Below, piece by piece: positions 9,408 to 57,821 of a stretch of DNA of 64,000 nucleotides (the first letter of the stretch is position 1; the number at the start of each line of letters is the position of its first letter). The stretch lies in the NCBI GenBank assembly GCA_944376205.1, contig CALWBV010000003.1, positions 101,678 to 165,677 on the forward strand, read 5' to 3'. The position numbers and the translations under genes are program-made. The stretch is from an uncultured Christensenellaceae bacterium. GTDB taxonomy: Bacteria > Bacillota > Clostridia > Christensenellales > UBA3700. The notes under the pieces are model-generated. The model made no database searches, was not told where the DNA came from, and saw only the letters and a list, made by a program, of their open reading frames with translations.

Positions 9408-10109
9408 ATGTGGGAAAAAATTAAAAGATTGCTTGCAAAGATATTCCATATACAAGAATCTACAGTCGATTTTATCGGAGGAGGAGAGGCATTGCCCGAA
9501 CCTCTTGATCCCGAAGAAGAGAAAACTCTTGTTGCTAAATATATTGCCGGTGACAGTAATGCGAGAACAAAATTGATCGAACATAATCTGCGCCTTGTCG
9601 TATATATTGCAAAAAAGTTTGAAAATACAAATGTTGACATAGAGGATTTGATTTCCGTGGGAACAATCGGTCTTATAAAGGCGGTAAATTCTTTCGATGA
9701 CAGCAAGCAGATAAAATTAGCGACCTACGCAAGTCGTTGCATAGAGAACGAAATTCTCATGCATTTGAGAAAAGTAGTCAAAACCCGCAACGAACTTTCC
9801 CTCGACGAACCTCTGAATGTCGACGGAGAGGGCAACGTGCTTCTTTTGTCTGACGTATTGGGAACGGAAAGTGACGTCATATATAAGGATCTCGAAAACG
9901 ATGTCGAAAAAGACATCCTCATTGCATCTTTCAACAAGTTGCCTCCAAGAGAAAGACAAATCGTAAAAATGAGATTCGGAATACTCGGGGCAGAACAAAA
10001 AACGCAAAAAGAGATTGCCGATATGTTCGGAATAAGCCAATCGTATATTTCGAGACTTGAAAAAAAGGTTATCAATAAACTCAAAAAAGAAATGTCGAAA
10101 ATGGTTTAG
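9408..10109 (+). CDS. sigE: sporulation sigma factor pro-sigma-E
   Basis: GGAGGTG SD then ATG 9408. Pro-sequence followed by [11 protein letters not shown], then region 2 ([42 protein letters not shown]) and region 4. Confidence 0.9.
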
Positions 10110-10116
10110 TTTTTTT

Positions 10117-10845
10117 GTACCGCCGAGAAGGGATGCTCACTGTATGTAAGTGTGTCTTTTGCGCTCTTTTTATTTCGTCGTCATCGTAATACAACAAGTA
10201 TTACTTCTTCCTTCTCGACAAAAATCATCGCAAAATCCGCTACTTACATACTAGTTCGCCCCCCTTCTCGGCGGTACTGTGTTATATACTATGTATTCAG
10301 TTTAAAGTTTGCGCCCTTTTTATTTCGTCGTCATCGTAATACAACAAGTATTACTTCTTCCTTCTCGACAAAAATCATCGCAAAATCCACTACTTACATA
10401 CTAGTTCGCCCCCCTTCTCGGCGGTACTGTGTTATATACTATGTATTTAGTTTAAAGTTTGCGCCCTTTTTATTTCGTCATCATCGTAATACAACAAGTA
10501 TTACTTCTTCCTCTCGACAAAAATCATCGCAAAATGCGCTACTTACATACTAGTTCGCCCCCCTTCTCGGCGGTACTAGGTTATATACTATGTATTTAGT
10601 TTAATGTTTGCGTCCTTTTTATTTCGTCGTCATCGTAATACAACAAGTATTACTTCTTCCTTCTCGACAAAAATCATCGCAAAATCCACTACTTACATAC
10701 TAGTTCGCCCCCCTTCTCGGCGGTACTGTGTTATATACTATGTATTTAGTTTAATGTTTGCGTCCTTTTTATTTCGTCATCATCATAATACGGCAAGTAT
10801 TACTTCTTCTTTCTCAACGTAAATCATCGAAAAATCAATAGTTTG
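10117..10845. repeat. tandem array of a 150-bp unit (about 4.6 copies) preceded by an inverted partial copy
   Basis: Copies lie at 10161-10310, 10311-10460, 10461-10609 (1-bp deletion) and 10610-10759, with a decayed copy at 10760-~10845. Copies 1 and 2 differ at 3/150 positions. The left arm (10117-10151) is the reverse complement of each unit's 3' end. Confidence 0.9.
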
Positions 10846-11043
10846 CAGCAATTTGTATTGTCAAGCGGCAGTATAGCGTAATTTTGCATTGTATAACACG
10901 CAATGCCGATGCCGATACAAGATTGCATGCGGTATAAAATTTTCTAAAATTTGTATCAAAAATCTTCGTATATTTTACAAAATTCTGCAAATAATACCAT
11001 TAATCTCAATTTACCTTCTGTACATACAAATGCGGAGGTGATT

Positions 11044-11808
11044 ATGCATAAAGTTGTGATCAACGGTATTGATACCCATTCTCTTCCAAAACTAAAGGCA
11101 AAGGAGTGCGATGAGTTGCTTGCTTTGGCTAAAAAAGGCGATAAAGACGCAAAAGACAAGCTTGTTGTGGCAAACATCAGACTGGTATTGTCAATAGTTC
11201 AGAGATTTTCTAACAGAGCAGGAAGCGATGATTTGTTTCAATCGGGTATGATAGGACTTATGAAAGCGATAGACGGTTTTGATCCTAAATTCAACGTACG
11301 CTTTTCGACTTATGCAGTGCCTATGATTTCGGGAGAAATAAGGCGCTTTATTAAGGACAGTACGGGAATAAAAGTGAGCAGAAGTATGAGAGATACTGCA
11401 TATAAGGCATTAAAAGCAAAAGAGATGCTCGAACTTAAAAACGCTACTTCGCCTACAATGCTTGAAATTGCAGCAGAAATAGATTTGCCTGTAAGAGAAG
11501 TCGTATGCGCACTCGATGCGGTAAGCGAAACGGTATCTTTGCAAGAATGCGTATATAATGACGGCGAGGACGGATTGCTATTGATGGAACAGATTGCCGA
11601 TAGCGGTCAAAGCGAAGAGGTATGGTCCACAAATCTTGCTTTAAGAGAGGGGATAAAAGCTCTTCCCGAAAGAGAGAAAAACGTATTGACAATGAGATAT
11701 TATCTCGGTAAGACACAAATGGAGATTTCTGACAGCTTGGGGATATCTCAAGCACAAGTAAGCCGACTCGAAAAAAACGCACTCGGAAAAATAAGAGAAT
11801 GTCTTTAA
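11044..11808 (+). CDS. sigG: sporulation sigma factor sigma-G
   Basis: GGAGGTG SD then ATG 11044. N-terminus ...INGIDTHSLPKLK, VVANIRLVLSIVQRF, and group-3 sigma regions 2-4. It lies downstream of sigE. The track start 10951 has no SD. Confidence 0.85.
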   Translation: MHKVVINGIDTHSLPKLKAKECDELLALAKKGDKDAKDKLVVANIRLVLSIVQRFSNRAGSDDLFQSGMIGLMKAIDGFDPKFNVRFSTYAVPMISGEIRRFIKDSTGIKVSRSMRDTAYKALKAKEMLELKNATSPTMLEIAAEIDLPVREVVCALDAVSETVSLQECVYNDGEDGLLLMEQIADSGQSEEVWSTNLALREGIKALPEREKNVLTMRYYLGKTQMEISDSLGISQAQVSRLEKNALGKIRECL

Positions 11809-13249: not shown

Positions 13250-13951
13250 ATGATTTTATCGGGACTTTTGGCGATTTTAAGCAATATTTTTTTCTTTACG
13301 GGATACATTCAGAATACCAATGCTTTTCCTAAACCACTCGATCCGCAAAGAGAAAAAGAGCTTCTCGAAGAAATGTTTAAGGGAAGCAAAACTGCAAAAG
13401 ACGAACTTGCAAAGCACAATATGCGACTTGTAGTACATATCGTCAAAAAGTATTCTAACTATCATGACAACGACGAGTTGATAAGCGTAGGATCAATAGG
13501 ACTCGTAAAAGCCCTCAACAGTTATTCTAGCGATAAAGGTACGCAGTTTGCGACATACGCTGCCAGATGTATAGAAAACGAAATCCTTATGACTTTGAGA
13601 GCCAACAAAAAAAATATGAACAATAAGTCTCTTTATGAGCCGATAAGTTTCGATAAAGAAGGAAACGAGGTTACTCTCATCGACCTGATAGGACAGGACG
13701 AAGAGAGCGTTATCGGAATAGTAGAGAATAAGTTTGCTACACAAAAACTTATGGAAGTTATAAAAACTCAACTTACCGAAAGAGAATATCAGATCATCTC
13801 AATGCGATACGGTTTGGATAATAAAGAGCCTATGACGCAAAAACAAGTTGCGCAGAGATTTGAGATATCAAGATCTTACGTATCCAGAATAGAGACAAGG
13901 GTACTTGCAAAATTAAAGGCGTATATGATAAAAGAAAAAATATTTTTCTGA
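13250..13951 (+). CDS. sigK: sporulation sigma factor pro-sigma-K (uninterrupted)
   Basis: GAGGTGA SD. Hydrophobic pro-sequence ending ...GYIQNTNAFPKPL (compare B. subtilis SYVKNNAFPQPL), then HNMRLVVHIVKKY and [14 protein letters not shown]. It is one continuous ORF with no skin-like insertion. Confidence 0.85.
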   Translation: MILSGLLAILSNIFFFTGYIQNTNAFPKPLDPQREKELLEEMFKGSKTAKDELAKHNMRLVVHIVKKYSNYHDNDELISVGSIGLVKALNSYSSDKGTQFATYAARCIENEILMTLRANKKNMNNKSLYEPISFDKEGNEVTLIDLIGQDEESVIGIVENKFATQKLMEVIKTQLTEREYQIISMRYGLDNKEPMTQKQVAQRFEISRSYVSRIETRVLAKLKAYMIKEKIFF

Positions 13952-13998: not shown

Positions 13999-14324
13999 TG
14001 CAAGACAGCCAGACTATCGCAGACCGTAAGGGATGAGGAAAGTCCGAGCACCACAAGGCAGAGTGCTGGCTAACTACCAGTCAGGGTGACCTGAAGGAAA
14101 GTGCAACAGAAATAGACCGCCTGCCTATGCAGGTAAGGATGGAAAGGCGAGGTAAGAGCTCACCGTCCCTGCGGCGACGCGGGGAGCCATGTAAACCCCA
14201 CTCGGTGCAAGAGAAATCGACTATAAGTAGCCTGCTTGTCGTAAAATCGCTTGAGCATAACGGCAACGTTATGCCTAGACAGATGATAGTCTAATACAGA
14301 ACTCGGCTTACAGACTGTCTTGCA
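13999..14324 (+). ncRNA. rnpB: RNase P RNA (bacterial type A-like)
   Basis: P1 pairing TGCAAGACAG (13999-14008) with CTGTCTTGCA (14315-14324). P4 strands GAGGAAAGTCCGAGC and ACAGAACTCGGCTTA are present, plus GGTAAGAGCTCACCG and GTAAACCCCACTCGG conserved blocks. Confidence 0.9.
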
Positions 14325-14375
14325 TTCTATATCGCATTTATTATCATAAACAGATAAATTTCTATACATTCGTAG

Positions 14376-14470: not shown

Positions 14471-17400
14471 ATGTTGTACGCTATAATTGTTGTATTGTTT
14501 ATAATATTGATTATTTTGATTCTTCTTGCCAAGAGACCGACAAGAAGAGAAGACATGCTGTCTCAAATGAATGAAAAAGATTTTGAAGACAATGTCAAAA
14601 GACTTGCCGTTAGTTTAAGGAGCGGTGAAGTCGTAGGGAATATCCCCAATATTGCCAAATATTTGAAGAAGATAAAAAGAGCATATAAAGTAACGCTTTC
14701 CAAAGTCGATTCAAAAACTCAACTGTACGAGTGTGAAAGATGGCTTTATGAAAACTATCATTCGCTTACGCTTGACGTAAAGCAAAGCGATTATAAGAGT
14801 TTTGCAAGACTTACGCATCATAAAAACAACGTGAGAATAATTCAGCTTGCACGTTTTTGCGTTGCGGCTTCAAACTGTAACGTGACAGGAGAAATTGTCG
14901 AAAAGACAATAAAGGAGTTTAATTCTTATACGCCGTTACATTACGATGAAGTATTGAATCTCGATAAGGCTTTCACGTATGCGCTTATTGAAAGAATTGC
15001 AGACATCTGCGATAAAATTACGCTGTGGGATAAACTCAAAGCCAATGCAATAGCGGATGCAGAACCTGTAAAAAGGCTGTGCAAATACGACGCATACCTT
15101 TATTTTTACAAACATACAGGCAAATATCTTGACGAAAAATATTTTTATAAAATCAATGATATCAATCCTGATAATATTGATTTGACTTTTACCGACGATC
15201 TAGTTGATTACAGCGTCATTATTTCTAATTGCATCAATTCTGCAAAGTCGGTAAAAGATATATTCAGAGACGATTTCAAGATAAAACTTTGTTCTGTCTA
15301 CGATATTATGTGTGAGGACGAAATTTATAATAATATGGATCTTTGTTCTCAATACGCTTACATCGGAGCCGTTGAAAAATTGTCGTCGCTTTACGGCGCA
15401 AGCGAAAGGTCGATAGCAGAAATTTCGCTTCGACTTGCAAAAGCTTACGGCGTGCACTTCGGAGAAATAATCTACGATTACAGATATGCCATAAAAGGAT
15501 ATTTGCATTCGTTTACGCCTCAAGTCCTTAAAAAACCTACTACAAAGGTCGATCAGAGACTTTATGCGACTGTTACGGCGCTATTGTCATTGGTGTTTAC
15601 CACAGTGTCAGTATTGATATTTATTCCCGAAATAACTTATATGGTATTTTCCGGAATACTTTCTTTGTTCGGAAGCGTTCCGACTGCGAGATTCATTGTA
15701 AAAATGATAGTCGGACGTATTCTTCCCGAAAGAAACGTGGCAAGAATGAATTATGAAAAGCTGCCGCACGAAGGCAAGACTATGTGTGTGGTAAGTCAAT
15801 ATATATCCACTTTGGAGCAAGCAGAAGAAGCCTGTCAAAAAATCAGTGCGCTTGCGGCAGTCAATGAGGACGATATGCTGTCATATGCGATTCTTGCAGA
15901 TTTCAAAACTTCAGATAAGGAAATCGACGATAGCGACCTTGATATCGTTATGCATATGCGAAAAATGCTTGAAGGCAAAGAAAACATCAACTTGTTTGTA
16001 AGAAAACGTATTTTGAAAGACGGTAAATGGATTGCAAAGGAGCGCAAAAGAGGAGCAATAGAAGCACTAAACAACGCTTTGATTTCAGATGACTTCAAAG
16101 AGTTTGCCTATGTCGTGAATCCTGTCGAAAAGCCTAATTTTATATTGCTTCTGGACGATGACAATATCTTGGCTCCCGGAAGCGTAAAGCAAGCAGTCAA
16201 CACAATGTTACATCCGCTCAACGCAAAATACTCGATAATGTCATTCGATTGCAAATACAGACTTTCGTCTCTCAAAACGATATGGTCAAAGCGATATTTG
16301 TCAGACAGCGGAGCGGACGAATATTGTCAGTATGGCGATTTTTATTATAAATTGTCAGGAAGAAGTATTTTCTGCGGCAAAGGTATATACAGATTAGACG
16401 ATTTTACGACTCAACTCAAAAATAAATTGCCTGAAGGAAAAATTTTGAGTCATGATATAATAGAGGGAGCAATGGCTGAATGCGGAAGTTTGGGTATTGT
16501 CACTTACGAAGATGCTCCCGACAGCTTTGTGAGTCATATTACAAGAGAGGAAAGATGGCACAGGGGAGATATACTTCTTATGCCTTACGTATTCTCTAAA
16601 AACGTAAAACAGCCTTTTTATAAGTATGTTATGTCCTACAACATTCTTGCTACTATTCTGCCGCTTGTCAACATTGTTGTTCTCATTGCCGCAATGTTGA
16701 CGTCAAAAGCCTTGTTTTTAGTTCCGTTCGGCATTTCTTTCGGAGGTACGTATCTTATAAGATACGGGCTTTGTCTCAATGCGTTGAATTACGACAAAAG
16801 ATTAAGGTATGTAGTCAAAGACTTTATCGGCGAGATCGTTGCGACTGTTTACGACTTTCTGATGTTACCGTTTTATGCGGTATTCGCAATTGTATTATGG
16901 GTAGGACTGGCAATAAAAGCTTTGTTTGATAAAGGACGTCTTACAGAATGGAAAACGTTTTATTCTTCTCAAAAGACTGCTAACGCAAACAGACATTTCG
17001 CGATGATATTGCCGTCGGTATTTGCATGTGTGATATTAGGCGCTTTGACAATGAATATCTATCTGATGCTGTATCTCGGGGCTTACGTTGCGACAGTTTT
17101 ATTGACGGCATTGTCGACGAAAAAAGTCGATAATACTGCGTATGTCTTTGCGGAGTCAGACAGAGAAATTCTTGAAAATATTGCCAACAAAACTCTCAAA
17201 TATTTTGAGACTAATCTTGAAGAAAACGCACTTATTTGCGATAATTATCAAGCTTTTCCTCATAAACAGGCAAATACTTTTACTTCGCCTACAAACATAG
17301 GATTTGCTTTGCTTTCGCATATTGCAGGGTATAGAATCGGCAGAAAAAGTATCGAAGATTGCCTTTTAGGATTGTCTAAATCCGTCGAGCTTATCGAAGA

Positions 17401-20400
17401 ATTAAAAAAATACAAGGGCAACCTTTATAATTGGTATTCGTTGGTCACAAAACAGCCTCTTGCGCCTTATTTCGTGTCGAGTGTGGATAGCGGTAATTTT
17501 GTGGCTTGCATGATATGCGCAAAACAGTTCGTAAAACAGTATGACGATAAACTTTATCGCAGAATGGCTGCTATCGTAAATGAGACGGATTTCGATACGC
17601 TGTTTGATAAAGAAGCGGGTAGATTCTATATAGGCTACAACGGTCAGGATGACAGATTCGAAGGACACTACGATATGCTTGCGTCGGAGTCGAGAATACT
17701 TTGTTATATTGCAAGCTGTCTATTGGGAAATGCGAAATATTGGAGAGGACTTGCGCAAAATATAGTTTCACTCAAAGGAAATACACTCGTTTCTTGGTCT
17801 GGTACGGCATTTGAATACCTTATGCCTCAACTTTTCATACCTGATTGCGATTATAGCGTTATTACGCAAAGCGTAAAAAACGCAGTAAATTTGATGTGCA
17901 ATACAAAATGTTCGGGACTGTGGGGTATAAGCGAAAGCTGTTATTACGAATTTAACGAAGAAAATCATTACAAATACAATGCGTTCGGTATAGGAGCATT
18001 GAGCCTAAGAGCGGCTGATGACAGATGTGTAATAAGTCCTTATTCCAGTGTACTGGCTTTAAGATATGCCCCCGAGAAAGTTATGGAAAATCTAAAAGCG
18101 CTGATATCTGACGGGATGCTTTCTACTATGGGATTTTACGAAGCATTGGATTTGTCAAAAGGTAAAGATACGGTTGCTTGTATGATGTCGCACCATCAAG
18201 GAATGATATTGTGTTCGATCATCAATGCATTGTATGACGATTATTTCGTAAGGCTTTTTATGTCTGACGATGCTATGAGAGGAGGCAGACTTTTGCTTGA
18301 AACTAAAATGCCTCAAAACAGAGCTAAAAAAGCTCAAAAAAGCGATTTTGTGTACGATACAGGCAATGAAAATTGCTATCAATACGGAGGAGAATGCAAG
18401 GGGTTTCCTGTCGTCAATGCGCTGTCAAACGGGCATTTTTCTACCGTAACAGATTCTTTCGGAAACGGTTATTCGTATTCTAAAGGAAAGTATCTAAACC
18501 GTTTTTTGGGAGATATATACCAAAATCAAGGCGGATATTTTTATATCAAAGACGATAAAGAACTTTATTCGCCCACGTTTGCGCCGTTCAGAAAAGATAA
18601 ATGTACTTTTTCATTCAGACCTTACGAAAGTGTGTATGAAAATCTCGATAAAAATTGCAAAATGAGCGTGTATATACCTCAAAATTCAAATTGCGAAATA
18701 AGAAAAATAACGGTTTATAACAAGGACAGCTACGCCAAAAAGTTTACGGTAGGATATTGCGAAGAGACGGCTTTAGCCGATTACGGCGGAATGTTTTCTC
18801 ATCCTGCGTTTGCAGATATGTTTGTATCGACTTCGTATTATCTGCCTTTGGACACTCTTATTGCAAAACGCACGTCAAGAAGTTTTGGCGGAGATTGTTA
18901 TTGTTCGCTTACCGTACTAGGAACAGACAAACATTCTTACGAGAGCAATCTTTTTAACTTCATAGGACGGGAAAGAAATTTTGATAATCCTTTGATCTTC
19001 GACACATACAAAGAAAATCCTGACGCTAGAGAATACGTAAGTATAGGCGACGTCCTCAATCCGTGTCTGGGATTTATAGGGGAAGTGGAGATTGCGGCAT
19101 TCTCTTCAAAGGACATTTATTGTATCAAATTTTTTGATACCGATCTTAATGCACTTCACAGCTCGATAAGGGAAAGTCGCAAAACCGATTTCGTAAAATA
19201 CGCATACGAAAGCGCAAGACTGACTCTTTTGTCAAAGACTTACAAGTATCAGCTCAATGACGAGATAAGCGATATTATATGCAAACTTGCGACTTCTGTA
19301 ATTTATCGCAATTACGACAGAGATAAACTGACTGCAATGGCGGACAGAAGCGGCGAGATATTGCCTATGGGACTTGACAGGGGCGTAAAATATATCTATT
19401 TTGAATATTACAATCAGGATATAATCTTGAAAAATTTGATATATGCGACGATATATCTGAATATGGCGTCCGTTAAATATACACTCGTAATAGCTTACAG
19501 ATTAAAAGGTCAGGACAATGACAGTATGCTGAAATCTTTCATTGATATTACGGGAGTCGGAGATATACTTGAGCTTGAGCAGATAAAATTCCTGCACCTC
19601 AACGGCGTAGACGAAAGTACCGTAAATTTTATAAAGACAAATGCGTTTGCCGTATATGACGAAAAACCTGTAAAAGGGGAGAAGGCTCCTTCAAAACTGA
19701 ACATTGTTCTACCTTCGGTTTGCGACGATAGGAACAGTGTTCGAATTGCTCCCGTATTTGGAAAAATTCAACCTGATATAGATATCGATTGCACATACGG
19801 CGGATTTGATGCTAAAGGAGATTTTATCGTCACAAAACAAACAAAATTGCCTTATTCAAACGTGATTTGCGGAGAATACGGCGGCTTTGTAGTTACTGCA
19901 AACGGCGGTGGATTTGATTATTTTTCAAACAGCAATTTATCTCGCTCTACAACATGGCAAAACAATCCCGTATTAGACAGCCCTTGTGAAGAAATCTATA
20001 TGTATGACGGTATGTTTGTAAGATTAAACAAGCTTAACGACGGCGGATACGTAAAACATGCGGCAGGATACACCGTTTTCAAGGGGATTGCCAACGGTAC
20101 GGAATATTCGGTCGAAGAAGATATAATTGCTGACGGAAAAGGTAAATCTATTCAAATTAATATTGCGAAATCGACACATAACAGTGATTTTGAGATAATT
20201 TTCAAACTCAATGCTATGCTTGGAGATCTGCCTAAACCGCATTTGTTATTCGATACGGCGATAGACAGCAATACCGTCAAAATTACCAATGCTTTCAACA
20301 ACAAATGCATATATATACGCACGGAATTACCGTGCGAACTTATACCTGACAAGGCTTTTTTGTGCGGAATTCGCAATGATATGAGATTGTGTGAATGCAA

Positions 20401-22042
20401 TACGGGATTTTATAATCCGTCGCATACAGTAAGAATTGCTTTTAACGGCAAAAAAACGCATAGAATAAGGATAATTCTTGCAGAAAGTTATGAATTTATC
20501 AAATCTGTCGATTTTGCAAAAGTCGATACGATGTGTAATGAAAGCAGATTGAAATTTACGTCCCTCAATAAGTTTGAACTTTGTTCAAAAAATAAAGATT
20601 TGAATATATTGTTCAACAAATGGTTGCCGTATCAAGTCGTGTCATCGAGACTCAACGGAAGATGCGGCTACTACCAGGCGGGCGGTGCAATAGGATTCAG
20701 AGATCAGCTTCAGGATTGTCTTACGATGCTTTATATAGACAGTGAAAAAGTTAGAAAGCATATTCTCGATTGTGCAGCGCATCAATATCTCGAAGGCGAT
20801 GTGCAGCATTGGTGGCATCCCGAACGGTTTGGCGTGCGTACACATATCATGGATGACAGAGTTTTTCTCGGATTTTTGACGTTTGAATATATAGAGTTTA
20901 CGGGAGACGAAAGCATACTTGACGAAAGAATAAAATACCTTATTTCGTCACCTCTTAATGCGGTCGATGAAGGAAGACTCGAAATACCTTCTGTAAGCAA
21001 AATGGGCGAAAGTCTTTTGAGTCATATTAAAAGGGCGCTCGATTCGGTATTGAGATACGGCAAAAACGGTCTGCTCCTTATCGGAGGAGGAGATTGGAAC
21101 GACGCTCTCAACGAGATAGGAATGAGGGATAAAGGCGAAAGCGTATGGCTTAGTATGTTTTGCGTGTATGTTTTGAGAAAATACGTAAAATATGTCGATT
21201 ATGAGCAGCGAAGACCGTATATAAATCATATAGATAACCTTCAGAAAGCTCTCGATAACGCTTTCAAAGAAGGTGCGTTTATTAGGGCGGTTACGGATGA
21301 TGGCGAGGAGTTGGGACGTCAGAGTTGCAAGCATTTTGCTCTCGATCTTTTATGCCAGAGTTGGAGCGTGATTGCGAATATTTCATCCAAGCAAAAACAA
21401 CGAATTGCTATGCAAAAAGCCGCTGAACTTATCGATTGCGACTATAAAATAATCAAATTGCTCGATCCGCCGCAGACTAAAAACAGATATTACGGGTATA
21501 TATCGTCTTATCCTCGAGGCGTAAGAGAAAACGGCGGTCAATATACGCATGCGGCAGTGTGGTATGCAAAGGCTTTGGCGATATCGGGAGAAAAAGTCGA
21601 TAAAGACGGGAAGAAATTGTCTGCAACAGATATTCTCGATATGCTCAATCCGATATCGAGATGTCAAAACCGAGATTTGATGCAAGCTTATATGGGTGAA
21701 CCTTACGTTTTGGCAGGAGATATCTATACTAATGCCGATAATTACGGTCGCATGGGCTGGAGTTGGTACACAGGATCGGCATCGATATTATACGATACGC
21801 TTATCCGAGATTATCTCGGCATACGCTTTTACGGCGAAAGAATGGTATTTTCAAAACCTCAACTTGACGATTGGTCGGGTACCTCGCTTATCTACAGATA
21901 TAAGGGCAGTATCTATCACTTGACATTTGTCAAGAGTCGGGAAAACGCAGTAAAGATCAACGGACTTACCGTCAAAGGCGAGATGTCGCTTAAGCTGGAG
22001 GCGGATAAGGGCAAATGCGAAGTGCTTGTTTGTTTCAGATAA
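14471..22042 (+). CDS. giant multidomain membrane glycosyltransferase/phosphorylase resembling cyclic beta-1,2-glucan synthase (GT84-like, alpha-helical glucanase-like and GH94-like domains)
   Basis: 2523 aa with N-terminal and internal TM clusters. GT motifs LLLDDDN, SHDIIEG and EERWHRGD. Middle block FTSPTNIGFALLS, VDSGNFVA, WSGTAFEYLMPQLF. C-terminal GH94-type motifs GGAIGFRDQLQD, HWWHP, GGGDWNDALN and RENGGQYTHAAVW. Confidence 0.75.
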   Translation: MLYAIIVVLFIILIILILLAKRPTRREDMLSQMNEKDFEDNVKRLAVSLRSGEVVGNIPNIAKYLKKIKRAYKVTLSKVDSKTQLYECERWLYENYHSLTLDVKQSDYKSFARLTHHKNNVRIIQLARFCVAASNCNVTGEIVEKTIKEFNSYTPLHYDEVLNLDKAFTYALIERIADICDKITLWDKLKANAIADAEPVKRLCKYDAYLYFYKHTGKYLDEKYFYKINDINPDNIDLTFTDDLVDYSVIISNCINSAKSVKDIFRDDFKIKLCSVYDIMCEDEIYNNMDLCSQYAYIGAVEKLSSLYGASERSIAEISLRLAKAYGVHFGEIIYDYRYAIKGYLHSFTPQVLKKPTTKVDQRLYATVTALLSLVFTTVSVLIFIPEITYMVFSGILSLFGSVPTARFIVKMIVGRILPERNVARMNYEKLPHEGKTMCVVSQYISTLEQAEEACQKISALAAVNEDDMLSYAILADFKTSDKEIDDSDLDIVMHMRKMLEGKENINLFVRKRILKDGKWIAKERKRGAIEALNNALISDDFKEFAYVVNPVEKPNFILLLDDDNILAPGSVKQAVNTMLHPLNAKYSIMSFDCKYRLSSLKTIWSKRYLSDSGADEYCQYGDFYYKLSGRSIFCGKGIYRLDDFTTQLKNKLPEGKILSHDIIEGAMAECGSLGIVTYEDAPDSFVSHITREERWHRGDILLMPYVFSKNVKQPFYKYVMSYNILATILPLVNIVVLIAAMLTSKALFLVPFGISFGGTYLIRYGLCLNALNYDKRLRYVVKDFIGEIVATVYDFLMLPFYAVFAIVLWVGLAIKALFDKGRLTEWKTFYSSQKTANANRHFAMILPSVFACVILGALTMNIYLMLYLGAYVATVLLTALSTKKVDNTAYVFAESDREILENIANKTLKYFETNLEENALICDNYQAFPHKQANTFTSPTNIGFALLSHIAGYRIGRKSIEDCLLGLSKSVELIEELKKYKGNLYNWYSLVTKQPLAPYFVSSVDSGNFVACMICAKQFVKQYDDKLYRRMAAIVNETDFDTLFDKEAGRFYIGYNGQDDRFEGHYDMLASESRILCYIASCLLGNAKYWRGLAQNIVSLKGNTLVSWSGTAFEYLMPQLFIPDCDYSVITQSVKNAVNLMCNTKCSGLWGISESCYYEFNEENHYKYNAFGIGALSLRAADDRCVISPYSSVLALRYAPEKVMENLKALISDGMLSTMGFYEALDLSKGKDTVACMMSHHQGMILCSIINALYDDYFVRLFMSDDAMRGGRLLLETKMPQNRAKKAQKSDFVYDTGNENCYQYGGECKGFPVVNALSNGHFSTVTDSFGNGYSYSKGKYLNRFLGDIYQNQGGYFYIKDDKELYSPTFAPFRKDKCTFSFRPYESVYENLDKNCKMSVYIPQNSNCEIRKITVYNKDSYAKKFTVGYCEETALADYGGMFSHPAFADMFVSTSYYLPLDTLIAKRTSRSFGGDCYCSLTVLGTDKHSYESNLFNFIGRERNFDNPLIFDTYKENPDAREYVSIGDVLNPCLGFIGEVEIAAFSSKDIYCIKFFDTDLNALHSSIRESRKTDFVKYAYESARLTLLSKTYKYQLNDEISDIICKLATSVIYRNYDRDKLTAMADRSGEILPMGLDRGVKYIYFEYYNQDIILKNLIYATIYLNMASVKYTLVIAYRLKGQDNDSMLKSFIDITGVGDILELEQIKFLHLNGVDESTVNFIKTNAFAVYDEKPVKGEKAPSKLNIVLPSVCDDRNSVRIAPVFGKIQPDIDIDCTYGGFDAKGDFIVTKQTKLPYSNVICGEYGGFVVTANGGGFDYFSNSNLSRSTTWQNNPVLDSPCEEIYMYDGMFVRLNKLNDGGYVKHAAGYTVFKGIANGTEYSVEEDIIADGKGKSIQINIAKSTHNSDFEIIFKLNAMLGDLPKPHLLFDTAIDSNTVKITNAFNNKCIYIRTELPCELIPDKAFLCGIRNDMRLCECNTGFYNPSHTVRIAFNGKKTHRIRIILAESYEFIKSVDFAKVDTMCNESRLKFTSLNKFELCSKNKDLNILFNKWLPYQVVSSRLNGRCGYYQAGGAIGFRDQLQDCLTMLYIDSEKVRKHILDCAAHQYLEGDVQHWWHPERFGVRTHIMDDRVFLGFLTFEYIEFTGDESILDERIKYLISSPLNAVDEGRLEIPSVSKMGESLLSHIKRALDSVLRYGKNGLLLIGGGDWNDALNEIGMRDKGESVWLSMFCVYVLRKYVKYVDYEQRRPYINHIDNLQKALDNAFKEGAFIRAVTDDGEELGRQSCKHFALDLLCQSWSVIANISSKQKQRIAMQKAAELIDCDYKIIKLLDPPQTKNRYYGYISSYPRGVRENGGQYTHAAVWYAKALAISGEKVDKDGKKLSATDILDMLNPISRCQNRDLMQAYMGEPYVLAGDIYTNADNYGRMGWSWYTGSASILYDTLIRDYLGIRFYGERMVFSKPQLDDWSGTSLIYRYKGSIYHLTFVKSRENAVKINGLTVKGEMSLKLEADKGKCEVLVCFR

Positions 22043-24540: not shown

Positions 24541-26259
24541 ATGAGTACCTTTTTATGTCTTACCAAAAGATTGGCGAAAAATACTCTCAAACCGACTTTT
24601 GCAGACGATAAAGAAAAGAAAAAATATATTGCTACGGTCATAGTGCTTATAGTGTGTTTCGGCATACCTGTGGTAATGAGCATTATCGGAGCATACGGAC
24701 TTATAAAGTCCGCAGTTGAACTCGGCTATATTGAGGAAGTATATTCGCTCATTTTTCTTTCGGCGCAGATAGTAACGATATTTTTCGGACTTTTCGCATA
24801 CGTCAATGTGATGTATTTTAGCAAAGATAACGAGTTTTTGTTTACCTTACCGATTAAGAGCGTAACGGTATTCTGGGCGAAATTATTTGTGGTGCTTATA
24901 TACGAATTGTTGTTTTCGGCTATTATCATTTTGCCGATGTGCGTTGTCGGTGCCGTTGCGATAATTTCATCGGGTATGTCGTTGAGTGCGGCTTATGTCG
25001 TGATGACTGTTTTGGCGGTATTCCTTTTACCGCTCATGGCGATATTGGTAGTTGCGCTTCTGTCATATCCGCTTATGCTGATATTCAGATTTTTCAAAAA
25101 ACATCCGACAGTCGGAGCCGTAATAGCTATTTTGTTTGTTGTTGCAATATATATGATTATATATATTCCTATACTCGTGAATACGCAAAGCGTGGACGTA
25201 ACGGATAGCTCGGGAGATATAAGCGGCGAGATAAGCGGAGACGCTTCAACAGACGATAATATAAGCGCTACAGAACTTTATTCTAAAATTTTGCCTACGA
25301 TAAGTAAGGTCGGAAATTATTCGTATCATACATTGTTTTTGGCAAAATCCATGCTGGGCGGAGACGGTATCCGCGCATTCGGATATGCGATGGCATTTTT
25401 AGGAATCGTCGCAGGCTTGACTGCGCTCGGAACACTTTTTGCCATGCTTCTCTATAAAAAACTTTCATACGAAGTACTTGAAAGCGGCGGAAGCGTAGGT
25501 AGTAAAAAACAGAAAAAACCTGCGGTGCAGTTGAGTGCAGACAAGGCTTTGTTCAGACGTGAAGTAAAGAGTGTATTCAAAAATACCACGTTGCTCATTC
25601 AGGCAGGTATGATAACCGTTTTGCCTCCTATTCTCGTATTTTTCTTGTGCAAAATGAGTTTTTCATCGGCAGAACAATCCGCAAATTCGGTTTTTGTCGC
25701 CGTCGGTATTGCAGAAATGCTTATCAAGTTGATGGGCGTATCCAACTTGTCGGCAACAATAGCGATATCGAGAGAGGGCGAAGGTATATTTATGCTCAAG
25801 ACGTATCCGGTCGACTACGATAAACTCGTTGACGTCAAATTGCGTTTTGCAAATATAATGTCATGGGTCACGGTAGGATTGTCAACGGTTGCCTTTATGC
25901 TTACGGGTGTCGCCAATATAGTTTCGGTAATAGGACTTTTCGCAGGAAACATGCTGTATATGGCGGCAATGAACAGATATTCTTTGTATCGTGATCTCAA
26001 AAAACCCAAGGTGCATTGGAAAAATATCGTAGAAATTACCAACAACAACATCTCGACGCTCATACCTATGTTGGTCGGAAGTGCGGGCGGAGTATTCATA
26101 ATGATCGCTGCGGTAGCTGTGGCTCTTTTGCCGATAAACACATATCTTGTCGCATTGATTTACTGTGTGATTACTGTCGGGGTCAGTCTGATTTATTATT
26201 TTGCGATAAAGGCAAAGACAAAAGACAATATTGCAGAATTGTTCGAGCGTATAGAGTAA
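24541..26259 (+). CDS. multi-pass membrane protein, putative ABC exporter permease partner
   Basis: 572 aa with 10 or more hydrophobic helices. It starts 12 nt after the ATPase gene. A central Ser/Asp-rich loop (SSGDISGEISGDAS) is present. No specific family was recognised. Confidence 0.55.
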   Translation: MSTFLCLTKRLAKNTLKPTFADDKEKKKYIATVIVLIVCFGIPVVMSIIGAYGLIKSAVELGYIEEVYSLIFLSAQIVTIFFGLFAYVNVMYFSKDNEFLFTLPIKSVTVFWAKLFVVLIYELLFSAIIILPMCVVGAVAIISSGMSLSAAYVVMTVLAVFLLPLMAILVVALLSYPLMLIFRFFKKHPTVGAVIAILFVVAIYMIIYIPILVNTQSVDVTDSSGDISGEISGDASTDDNISATELYSKILPTISKVGNYSYHTLFLAKSMLGGDGIRAFGYAMAFLGIVAGLTALGTLFAMLLYKKLSYEVLESGGSVGSKKQKKPAVQLSADKALFRREVKSVFKNTTLLIQAGMITVLPPILVFFLCKMSFSSAEQSANSVFVAVGIAEMLIKLMGVSNLSATIAISREGEGIFMLKTYPVDYDKLVDVKLRFANIMSWVTVGLSTVAFMLTGVANIVSVIGLFAGNMLYMAAMNRYSLYRDLKKPKVHWKNIVEITNNNISTLIPMLVGSAGGVFIMIAAVAVALLPINTYLVALIYCVITVGVSLIYYFAIKAKTKDNIAELFERIE

Positions 26260-56999: not shown

Positions 57000-57821
57000 G
57001 TGGCAAAAAAGAAATTCGATTATTACTTTTTAAGATTTATTTTCAGGGCAACAGTTTTTGTTGTCATGGTTTCTTTTACTTTATATGAGATTTTCAGCGG
57101 CAACGAGATTTTCGGAATAAGTCGCATCATAGACAGTAACTATTATAAAGACGGCTTCAAATCAGACGGATTCTGGCACGGTTTTTCACCTTTGCATATC
57201 GTTTGGACATGCATGATGCTATATATGTTGTCGCATCTTATAAATTTCAAGTTTGTATCCAAAGGAAGTACTAAAAAATTTGCAAGCCGCTATGTAGAGA
57301 GCCAAAGAAACAATAAAGAAGTCATTCGTCTCACAAGAAAATTTTATCAGAAAGGCGCTATTAAAACAGGGCTTGTTTATGCCGCATTAAATCTTGTAAT
57401 CTTTATATTATATATGATCGACCGCTATTCGAAATATAAAATTTTCGGCGGACATTCCGGTCAGATAATAATCATTGTACAAATGTTTTTCTATGTGAGC
57501 GACTTTATCTGCATAATATTTTTCTGTCCTTTTCAAAAATGGTTTATGCATAATAAATGTTGCAAAACATGCCGTATTTACGATTGGGGAGCAATCATGA
57601 TGCAGGCTCCGATGTTCTATATCCCTAATTTCTACGCTACGACGCTTTCGCTGTTTTCTTTGATAGTATTTATTCGCTGGGAGGTTTCATACTATCGTCA
57701 TCCCGAGCGTTTTATAGAATATACGAATTGTTCGCTGTCTTGCAAAAACTGCGATGAAGAATGGTGCAGAATCAAAGGAAAAATAATCAATACAGAAAGA
57801 AAAGAGAATCATATTCTCTGA
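57000..57821 (+). CDS. hypothetical polytopic membrane protein with Cys-rich motifs
   Basis: About 6 hydrophobic segments. CCKTC and CSLSCKNCDEEWC clusters lie in the C-terminal third. GTG start without a clear SD, so the start is uncertain. No family was recognised. Confidence 0.5.
   Translation: MAKKKFDYYFLRFIFRATVFVVMVSFTLYEIFSGNEIFGISRIIDSNYYKDGFKSDGFWHGFSPLHIVWTCMMLYMLSHLINFKFVSKGSTKKFASRYVESQRNNKEVIRLTRKFYQKGAIKTGLVYAALNLVIFILYMIDRYSKYKIFGGHSGQIIIIVQMFFYVSDFICIIFFCPFQKWFMHNKCCKTCRIYDWGAIMMQAPMFYIPNFYATTLSLFSLIVFIRWEVSYYRHPERFIEYTNCSLSCKNCDEEWCRIKGKIINTERKENHIL

Follow-up and report, generated by a model that had tools for sequence, protein, structure and literature searches.

The spacer between the sporulation sigma factor genes sigE and sigG of an uncultured Christensenellaceae bacterium contains a tandem array of a 150-bp unit, which we analysed within a 64-kb stretch of chromosome (the window). 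It is probable that this array is a local cluster of a small dispersed family of hairpin-forming intergenic repeats, which is specific to one subclade of uncultured Christensenellaceae and has been amplified into a minisatellite at this site. The array is most likely neutral or selfish DNA rather than a switch dedicated to sporulation. All sequences compared here are short-read metagenome assemblies, and the exact copy number of a 150-bp repeat is uncertain in such data.

Organization of the array

The gap between sigE and sigG comprises 934 nt (10110–11043). The array within it outranks all other repeats of the window by far in Tandem Repeats Finder. An earlier note on this DNA, made from the sequence alone, had described head-to-tail copies of a 150-bp unit, and this description is correct: the units at 10161–10310 and 10311–10460 differ at 3 of 150 positions, and the third unit has 149 nt. 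The array and its parts are as follows.

10158–10836: tandem array with period 150, 4.5 copies, 95% matches and score 1204 (Tandem Repeats Finder)
10117–10277, plus strand: copy 1, a complete 161-nt imperfect palindrome and the basic element of the family, as judged from folding, single copies elsewhere and covariation
10117–10151, plus strand: outer left arm (GTACCGCCGAGAAGGG...GTATGTAAGT), which occurs once and has stretches of 16 nt and 10 nt that are perfectly complementary to each of the four right arms
10186–10204, plus strand: tip hairpin GTAATAC-aacaa-GTATTAC, repeated at 10336, 10486 and 10635 and degenerate at 10785
10278–10427, 10428–10576 and 10577–10726, plus strand: three truncated units of 150, 149 and 150 nt
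10727–10874, plus strand: fifth unit, old, degenerate and full-length, with 87.7% identity over 73 nt and decayed beyond

The sequence CCCTTCTCGGCGGTAC has four perfect sites on the plus strand (10262, 10412, 10561 and 10711) and one on the minus strand (10117–10132), and this count of five was reached in none of 100 shuffles. The 16-nt left arm is hence, as had been claimed, a perfect complement of four right arms. A second arm was also described correctly except for its length, since it pairs with 10242–10251 and its three repeats over 10 nt (10142–10151) and not over 9 nt. The small hairpin recurs in each unit as stated in the earlier note. The arms are real but extend inward, and 10117–10277 is one continuous palindrome tipped by the small hairpin. 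In each truncated unit a 33-nt linker stands where the outer left arm would be, whereas the inner left arm and the tip are retained, as is the complete right arm with GGCGGTAC at its end. The right arms of these units are located at 10392–10427, 10541–10576 and 10691–10726, and the right arms are followed by TGTGTTATATAC. The fifth copy is decayed as described before, but it does not end near 10845. It continues as a full-length degenerate copy to about 10874, with its right arm eroded to AGTTTGCAGC...TCAAGCGGCAGTAT (10840–10874). The basic element of the family has a length of about 161 bp, conserved ends GTACCGCCGAGAAGGGG ... CCCCTTCTCGGCGGTAC and the conserved tip GTAATAC-N5-GTATTAC.

A single left arm facing four right arms is what would be expected if a segment devoid of the outer left arm had been duplicated in tandem. 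The proposed pairing of this arm with any of the four right arms is based on a real complementarity, which is however a by-product of the duplication. In several sister strains the outer left arm has two mismatches (CTCGAAGGG) or is deleted.

Folding and covariation of the element

The segment 10117–10277 folds as one long hairpin with −69.6 kcal/mol (z −11.1) on the plus strand and −78.8 kcal/mol (z −12.6) on the minus strand. A truncated unit alone yields a weak fold (−22.6 kcal/mol, z −2.5). When the whole region is folded, the minimum-energy structure joins the left arm to the nearest right arm.

Covariation was evaluated for 11 full elements from three loci with a mean column identity of 87%. 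The RNAalifold consensus is the long hairpin with 49 pairs, 13 of which show compensatory double changes. Paired cells amount to 97.7%, compared with 92.6% after shuffling. The shuffled mean for double-change pairs is 6.4, a value of 13 was reached in none of 500 shuffles, and controls with partners slid by one to three columns gave only 0–4 such pairs. Compensatory sets are TAAGT/ACTTA, TAAGC/GCTTA and TAAAC/GTTTA as well as TTTTGCG/CGCAAAA and TTTTCCG/CGGAAAA. In the element of locus L131, GTAG...GAGACGG is matched by CCGTCTC...CTAC. The tip stem is conserved and contains one compensatory change, again in L131, where GCAATAC pairs with GTATTGC. These compensatory changes indicate that the hairpin is a maintained property of the family. 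The earlier note had regarded the structural idea as lost if no transcript crossed the array and the arms showed no covariation in relatives; such covariation is present. The elements are imperfect palindromes with conserved inverted ends, a property by which the REP/REPIN, ERIC and Correia repeats are recognized as well.

An assignment of a putative RNA to one of the strands was rejected. Copy 1 of the window folds slightly better on the minus strand, but this does not hold across the family, and the counts of wobble versus A-C pairs are not discriminating (there are 5 minus-only cells versus 13 plus-only ones, and a single marginal pair accounts for 7 of the latter). Since the wobbles show no clear strand preference, three targets of the constraint are conceivable, namely single-stranded DNA (in the course of transposition or replication), inverted repeats in duplex DNA, and RNA.

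Copies at unrelated loci

BLAST searches against all fetched loci identified copies of the element outside the sigE–sigG spacer, next to a gene encoding an RsgI_M domain:

L126:3253–3732: 3-unit array upstream of the RsgI_M-domain gene, with a cobalamin riboswitch on the minus strand at its other side; the site is a divergent promoter region
L126:5509–6095: array downstream of the RsgI_M-domain gene, directly after the terminator of the gene
L131:2172–2333: single, nearly perfect 162-nt palindrome after the terminator of the RsgI_M-domain gene

According to the earlier note, the array would be of little interest at this locus if the unit were found at unrelated intergenic sites. In sister species this is the case, on both flanks of the RsgI_M-domain gene. 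Further copies are present upstream of this gene in L123, a 458-kb scaffold of a sister strain (L123:659–960), and contig L127 has the element at both ends, around the gene. In L128, which stems from another species, both flanks are empty. The arrays at the three loci have a common architecture, in which a full palindrome comes first and units devoid of the outer left arm come after it. One variant unit, which bears an insertion, is common to the sigE–sigG arrays and the arrays downstream of the RsgI-like gene. Close homologues of the RsgI_M-domain gene are mostly located on contigs of about 1.8–2 kb, as would be expected if repeats flank the gene.

The cobalamin riboswitch (Rfam RF00174, 89–99 bits) was found on the minus strand at L126:3069–3250, L123:475–660 and L131:246–428. 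It heads a minus-strand operon adjoining the upstream element array at the RsgI-like locus.

In L123:1184–3003 (ERZ16268194 scaffold_4), sigG is not preceded by spoIIGA–sigE but by the gene of the RsgI_M-domain lipoprotein, its canonical terminator and the element. This junction results either from recombination between element copies or from a chimeric assembly through the repeat. In either case, copies are needed at both loci.

Variation of the array and empty sites in relatives

Contigs of the same species, with identical SigG, hold between 1.5 and at least 4.5 copies. Among them, the spacer varies from 485 bp in L006, with 1.5 copies (a full palindrome and the old fifth unit), up to the 934 bp of the window. 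L003 has at least 3.5 units and L002, whose array includes an N gap, at least 4, while L005, L007 and L010 carry a variant right end. Many contigs break off inside the array, and two scaffolds have N gaps in it. The sister species, with SigG about 91% identical, possess diverged homologues of the element at the same site, and their sigE–sigG spacers have lengths of 273, 315, 425, 437, 630, 649, 797, about 806 and 951 bp. A single palindrome is found in the sister strains L095 and L097, and strain L098 has lost the outer left arm. The array thus combines head-to-tail copies with copy numbers that differ between strains (the short-read numbers being uncertain). Owing to this ongoing resizing it behaves as a minisatellite, i.e. 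as a variable number of tandem repeats (VNTR) locus.

In species with SigG 89–90% identical and the same gene order, the spacer has only 108–110 bp and contains no element; GAATA-N15-CAAATAATA follows there almost immediately after the sigE stop. The spacers of more distant relatives are also free of the element and have about 90–180 bp, with the exception of L028. The element-free spacers of equally close relatives and the variation of copy number and arm integrity at identical SigG speak against a required regulator.

Several peculiarities were observed at this site. The exception just mentioned (L028:2740–2880, Christensenella sp. UBA7571) contains three unrelated repeats of ~45 bp (GTGTAGAACGCACGCAAC.GTCGTT) in a sigE–sigG spacer of 265 bp. 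The sigE–sigG junction may tolerate repeat insertions more than once. In L094:9540–9580, a deletion joins codon ~226 of sigE to the element at its inner left arm, which changes the C-terminus of SigE from KKEMSKMV to RGAHCL with the stop codon supplied by the element. This fusion could be real or an assembly error. The insertion-bearing unit variant contains a nested insertion of ~200 nt, which is itself partly palindromic (GGATAAG...ATTTGAGAG / CTCTCAAAT...TTATCC). It is found at L012:2414–2630, in L091, L093, L096, L115 and L116, and at L126:5850–6040. Fragments resembling this insertion (GTATTGTCAAG, GCAATGCCGAT) are located to the right of the window array at about 10856–10915.

Searches for coding, RNA and mobile-element signatures

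A scan of the plus strand of the gap (10110–11043) detected neither a terminator-like site nor a U-tract, in accordance with the earlier note. An intrinsic (Rho-independent) terminator was ruled out, since the right arms lack a U-tract. With Rfam 15 at the gathering threshold, the sole match of the window is the RNase P RNA. A permissive scan of 10050–11050 (E up to 5) yielded only matches whose E values are about 1 or higher and whose scores fall far short of the gathering thresholds.

A protein-coding repeat or a type I toxin peptide was likewise rejected, as the variable columns are distributed over the three phases as 24, 20 and 21 (chi-square p = 0.84). Open reading frames (ORFs) pass through the array on the plus strand because the period of 150 is a multiple of three; they include a 133-aa ORF at 10152–10553 and hydrophobic peptides of 31 aa. 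None of them has a ribosome-binding site, as the earlier note had already stated, and they lack codon periodicity and conservation in the sister species. No frame is free of stops across all element variants, and gene callers called no ORF inside any fetched array.

At six insertion sites inspected by eye, no direct duplication was seen, the filled and empty sites being too diverged for a clean comparison. The left flanks are mostly T-rich, often with a T-run followed by G (TTTTTTT, TTTTTGGG, TTTTTTGGTG, TTGTG), and the right flanks are unrelated. A blastn search with the element gave no match in plasmid and phage collections. The pattern ACTTACATAC-N6-14-CCCTTCTCGGCGGTA had no match in GTDB genomes and JGI metagenomes; it is too specific for the species of the window to match the sister-species genomes in GTDB. 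A relaxed pattern, GTATTACTTC-N40-70-CCTTCTCGGCGGTA, which covers all three species, had no match in JGI metagenomes and viral contigs. Judging by these zero matches, the JGI set appears not to contain this lineage.

Alternative explanations

The array could be a selected cis-acting RNA at the sigE/sigG boundary, i.e. an insulator, a processing site for RNase III or an exonuclease, or a partial terminator on spoIIG read-through transcripts. Such an RNA would uncouple sigG from mother-cell and pre-divisional transcription, and its copy number would tune the effect. The very stable hairpin of the full element (z −11.1) and its maintenance by compensatory changes are consistent with this proposal. 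So is the location of the element, which in at least three species is precisely the interval that separates the sigE stop from the conserved promoter of sigG. Moreover, read-through from spoIIG, to which the earlier note had referred, is documented for B. subtilis: transcripts from spoIIGA–sigE reach sigG and are not translated owing to a large hairpin at the ribosome-binding site (PMC5942855). Nevertheless, we regard a selected cis-acting RNA as unlikely. The element is missing from equally close species in which the gene order is the same, and the locus persists in strains that have lost the outer arm or even the sigE end. Around an unrelated gene, such arrays are present both in a divergent promoter region and behind the canonical terminator, places where read-through RNA is unlikely. 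Furthermore, a U-tract is missing and the wobble pairs show no clear strand preference. A set of independent small-RNA genes, or a structured non-coding RNA acting in trans, would agree with the covarying long hairpin and with the presence of several loci, as known from multicopy small RNAs. This explanation is very unlikely, because there is no match to an Rfam family and no convincing promoter or terminator on either strand within the units. In addition, the internal units lack half of the hairpin and fold weakly, and copy number, deletions and nested insertions vary freely among strains.

A protein-binding platform at the DNA level was also considered, for instance inverted motifs that orient SpoIIIE/FtsK and slow chromosome translocation just before sigG. 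The arm holds GAGAAGGG, which is identical to the octamer of the SpoIIIE recognition sequence (SRS) from B. subtilis, and each unit carries the reversed motif GAAGAAG. Both the SRS and the L. lactis FtsK motif GAAGAAG are documented (PMC3936747, PMC5869595, PMC3384302). Within the 64 kb, GAGAAGGG is found only inside the element, at 10125–10132 on the plus strand and at 10262, 10412, 10561 and 10711 on the minus strand. GAAGAAG is skewed 32:8 to the plus strand, and five of the eight minus-strand copies are located in the array (10204, 10354, 10504, 10653 and 10803). The absence of GAGAAGGG from the remainder of the 64 kb is however not what is expected of the organism's own polar motif. The same arrays are moreover present at unrelated loci, and the motif is not conserved in the family, where many left arms read CTCGAAGGG and L131 has GAGACGGGG instead. 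Because of this lack of conservation the resemblance to the SRS is treated as coincidence, and we consider a binding platform extremely improbable. Finally, the array might be an artefact, namely a collapsed or inflated repeat without a real array behind it. Short-read metagenome assemblies are prone to raise this suspicion, and contigs that break in the array and scaffolds with N gaps were indeed seen. Yet independent assemblies from several projects recover multi-unit arrays with substitutions that distinguish the units, and the diverged multi-unit arrays of the sister species cannot stem from repeat inflation. An artefact is hence likewise extremely improbable.

Resemblances to Spo0A boxes (TGTCGAG, TTCGTCA), seen by eye and counted, are not conserved across the family and were taken as coincidence.

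Proposed origin of the array

We favour the amplified element resembling a miniature inverted-repeat transposable element (MITE), which had been one of several options in the earlier note; its other options, an insulator, a processing site or a protein platform specific for this locus, are not favoured. In the proposed scenario, the ancestor of the subclade would have acquired one palindrome downstream of the sigE stop and upstream of the sigG promoter. The segment without the outer left arm would then have been duplicated. Unequal recombination or replication slippage among the copies may expand, contract and homogenize the array. For the spread between loci we infer either mobilization in trans by a transposase that recognizes hairpins or inverted-repeat ends, as in the REPIN/RAYT, IS200-like and MITE systems, or block transfer by recombination. 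Presumably, the element is dispersed within the species of the window, too.

The element may also have an effect at the RNA level. By analogy with B. subtilis, spoIIG read-through RNA of the bacterium studied here would carry these hairpins and could be stabilized or cut at them, as is known for ERIC and Correia elements (PMC2649163, PMC2229807). Copy 1 would form a very stable hairpin on this RNA, which could act as an incidental barrier to 3'-exonucleases or as a substrate of RNase III. Such effects on the read-through RNA are probably incidental and do not reflect a required or locus-specific function, since close relatives do without the element, strains readily lose its arms, and arrays of this kind are also located in a promoter region and behind a terminator.

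Several observations weigh against a dispersed repeat family as the explanation. Only three loci are documented, all of them in sister species. In the window's own species only the sigE–sigG copy was seen, and there is no second copy in the 64-kb window. The junction of RsgI terminator, element and sigG in L123 could be chimeric through the repeat. No target-site duplication was seen at the six sites, no parent insertion sequence was detected in plasmids or phages, and the window contains no transposase. The pattern scans of GTDB genomes, JGI metagenomes and viral contigs were empty. In addition, the element is persistent at sigE–sigG across at least three species and its structure covaries, both of which are also expected of a selected cis-acting RNA.

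A combination of both ideas is conceivable, in which the repeat at sigE–sigG has been co-opted. It would then serve as an insulator or processing barrier on read-through RNA and as a contingency-type modulator of sporulation timing that is tunable by copy number. Since the array readily changes in length, strains or subpopulations would differ in the shielding of sigG from pre-divisional and mother-cell transcription. We rate this co-option as quite improbable.

Flanking genes and window context

The genes and the promoter adjoining the array are as follows.

9408–10109, plus strand: sigE (pro-sigma-E), upstream flank; NCBIfam NF006158 SigE with 354.8 bits (cut-off 339)
10968–10996, plus strand: probable sigG promoter GTATA-N15-CAAATAATA, downstream of the array and conserved in relatives
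11044–11808, plus strand: sigG, downstream flank; top NCBIfam match SigG NF006071 with 333 bits, below the equivalog cut-off of 372

The stop codon of sigE is TAG at 10107–10109 and is followed by T7; in L001 the gene is called with 233 aa. The gene downstream of the array was taken as sigG in spite of a score below the cut-off, since SigG is its top match and the gene order fits. By its SigG protein, the window is assigned to uncultured Christensenellaceae. The order sigE, sigG, ylmC (ylmC/ymxH), nrdR and sigK is conserved, and the RNase P RNA is next. Relatives that carry the element and relatives that lack it both retain G(A/T)ATA-N15-CAAATAATA a short distance upstream of sigG, and we take this putative promoter to be of the sigma-F/G type. 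The window represents core chromosome with the dcw cluster, ruvAB, queA–tgt, rpsB–tsf, infB and spoIIIA, and no transposase was found among the genes of its 64 kb.

An uninterrupted sigK (13250–13951; NCBIfam SigK subfamily with 286 bits, cut-off 252) is located ~1.4 kb downstream of sigG, so that 4.6 kb hold three sporulation sigma genes (sigE, sigG and sigK). The RNase P RNA (14001–14326, 272.8 bits) lies directly 3' of sigK. The adjacent region 14471–22042 encodes a protein of 2523 aa with Glycoamylase, GH94 beta-supersandwich and Glyco_hydro_94 domains, whose architecture presumably resembles that of cyclic beta-1,2-glucan synthases. This protein adjoins the sporulation sigma cluster in all fetched relatives with enough downstream flank. 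The ORFs at 24541–26259 (572 aa) and 57000–57821 (273 aa) gave no Pfam match at E <= 1e-5.

Implications

What appeared to be a sporulation-specific regulatory oddity becomes a documented repeat family, which is small, structured, dispersed and absent from Rfam, in the poorly studied, uncultured Christensenellaceae. The element breaks short-read assemblies at sigG and at the RsgI-like gene and may create chimeric joins, possibly that in L123. As a hypervariable marker, the array is suited for strain typing. Long palindromic repeats kept by compensation are best known from Proteobacteria and also persist in gut bacteria of the class Clostridia. The sigE–sigG junction tolerates a structured insert of up to about 1 kb. 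The element does not represent a new regulatory principle. Co-option, if true, would tie differences in the sporulation timing of a gut anaerobe to the instability of a repeat.

Comparison with known systems

The element family has no homology to named families and is undescribed. REPs are characterized by a conserved GTAG, and the 5' end of the element, GTAC (GTAG in L131), recalls this motif. The REP/REPIN sequences, which are mobilized by RAYT (TnpA-REP; PMC3116915, PMC8266576), are likewise non-coding and extragenic, with two inverted ends and a long hairpin that is kept by compensatory changes, and they also cluster and are inherited vertically within a lineage. However, REPINs tend to be shorter and to number tens to hundreds of copies, compared with three documented loci in the present family, and most of their descriptions come from Proteobacteria. 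The truncated units form direct tandem arrays and not inverted doublets, and no RAYT gene is found in the available sequence. Because of this lack of a RAYT gene and the low documented copy number, the family was not filed as REPIN. A classification as classical MITE was not adopted either, since no target-site duplication was seen.

Like the present element, ERIC (IRU) and Correia elements are imperfect palindromes of 100–160 bp in intergenic, often co-transcribed regions (PMC2649163, PMC2229807). They can fold in mRNA and be bound or cut by RNase III, which alters the expression of neighbouring genes as a side effect (PMC2649163, PMC2229807). The present element shares no sequence similarity with either, and a TA target duplication was not observed. 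ERIC and Correia sequences are present in high copy number and are not usually amplified in tandem, unlike the array.

MIRU in Mycobacterium is an intergenic minisatellite (VNTR) whose units are not long palindromes, and some of these units contain short ORFs overlapping the flanking genes. The array shares with such minisatellites a period of tens to about 150 bp, a position between genes of the same orientation and a strain-variable copy number. It differs from MIRU in that its unit is derived from a hairpin and has no coding signal.

The hairpin between spoIIG and sigG of B. subtilis corresponds to the array insofar as RNA structure is placed between sigE and sigG on read-through transcripts. 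There, the hairpin adjoins and sequesters the ribosome-binding site of sigG, whereas the array is located upstream of the sigG promoter, excludes the ribosome-binding site and is missing in close relatives. Taken together, the family most resembles the palindromic repeats of the REPIN/ERIC/Correia type, and at sigE–sigG it is most similar to a VNTR.

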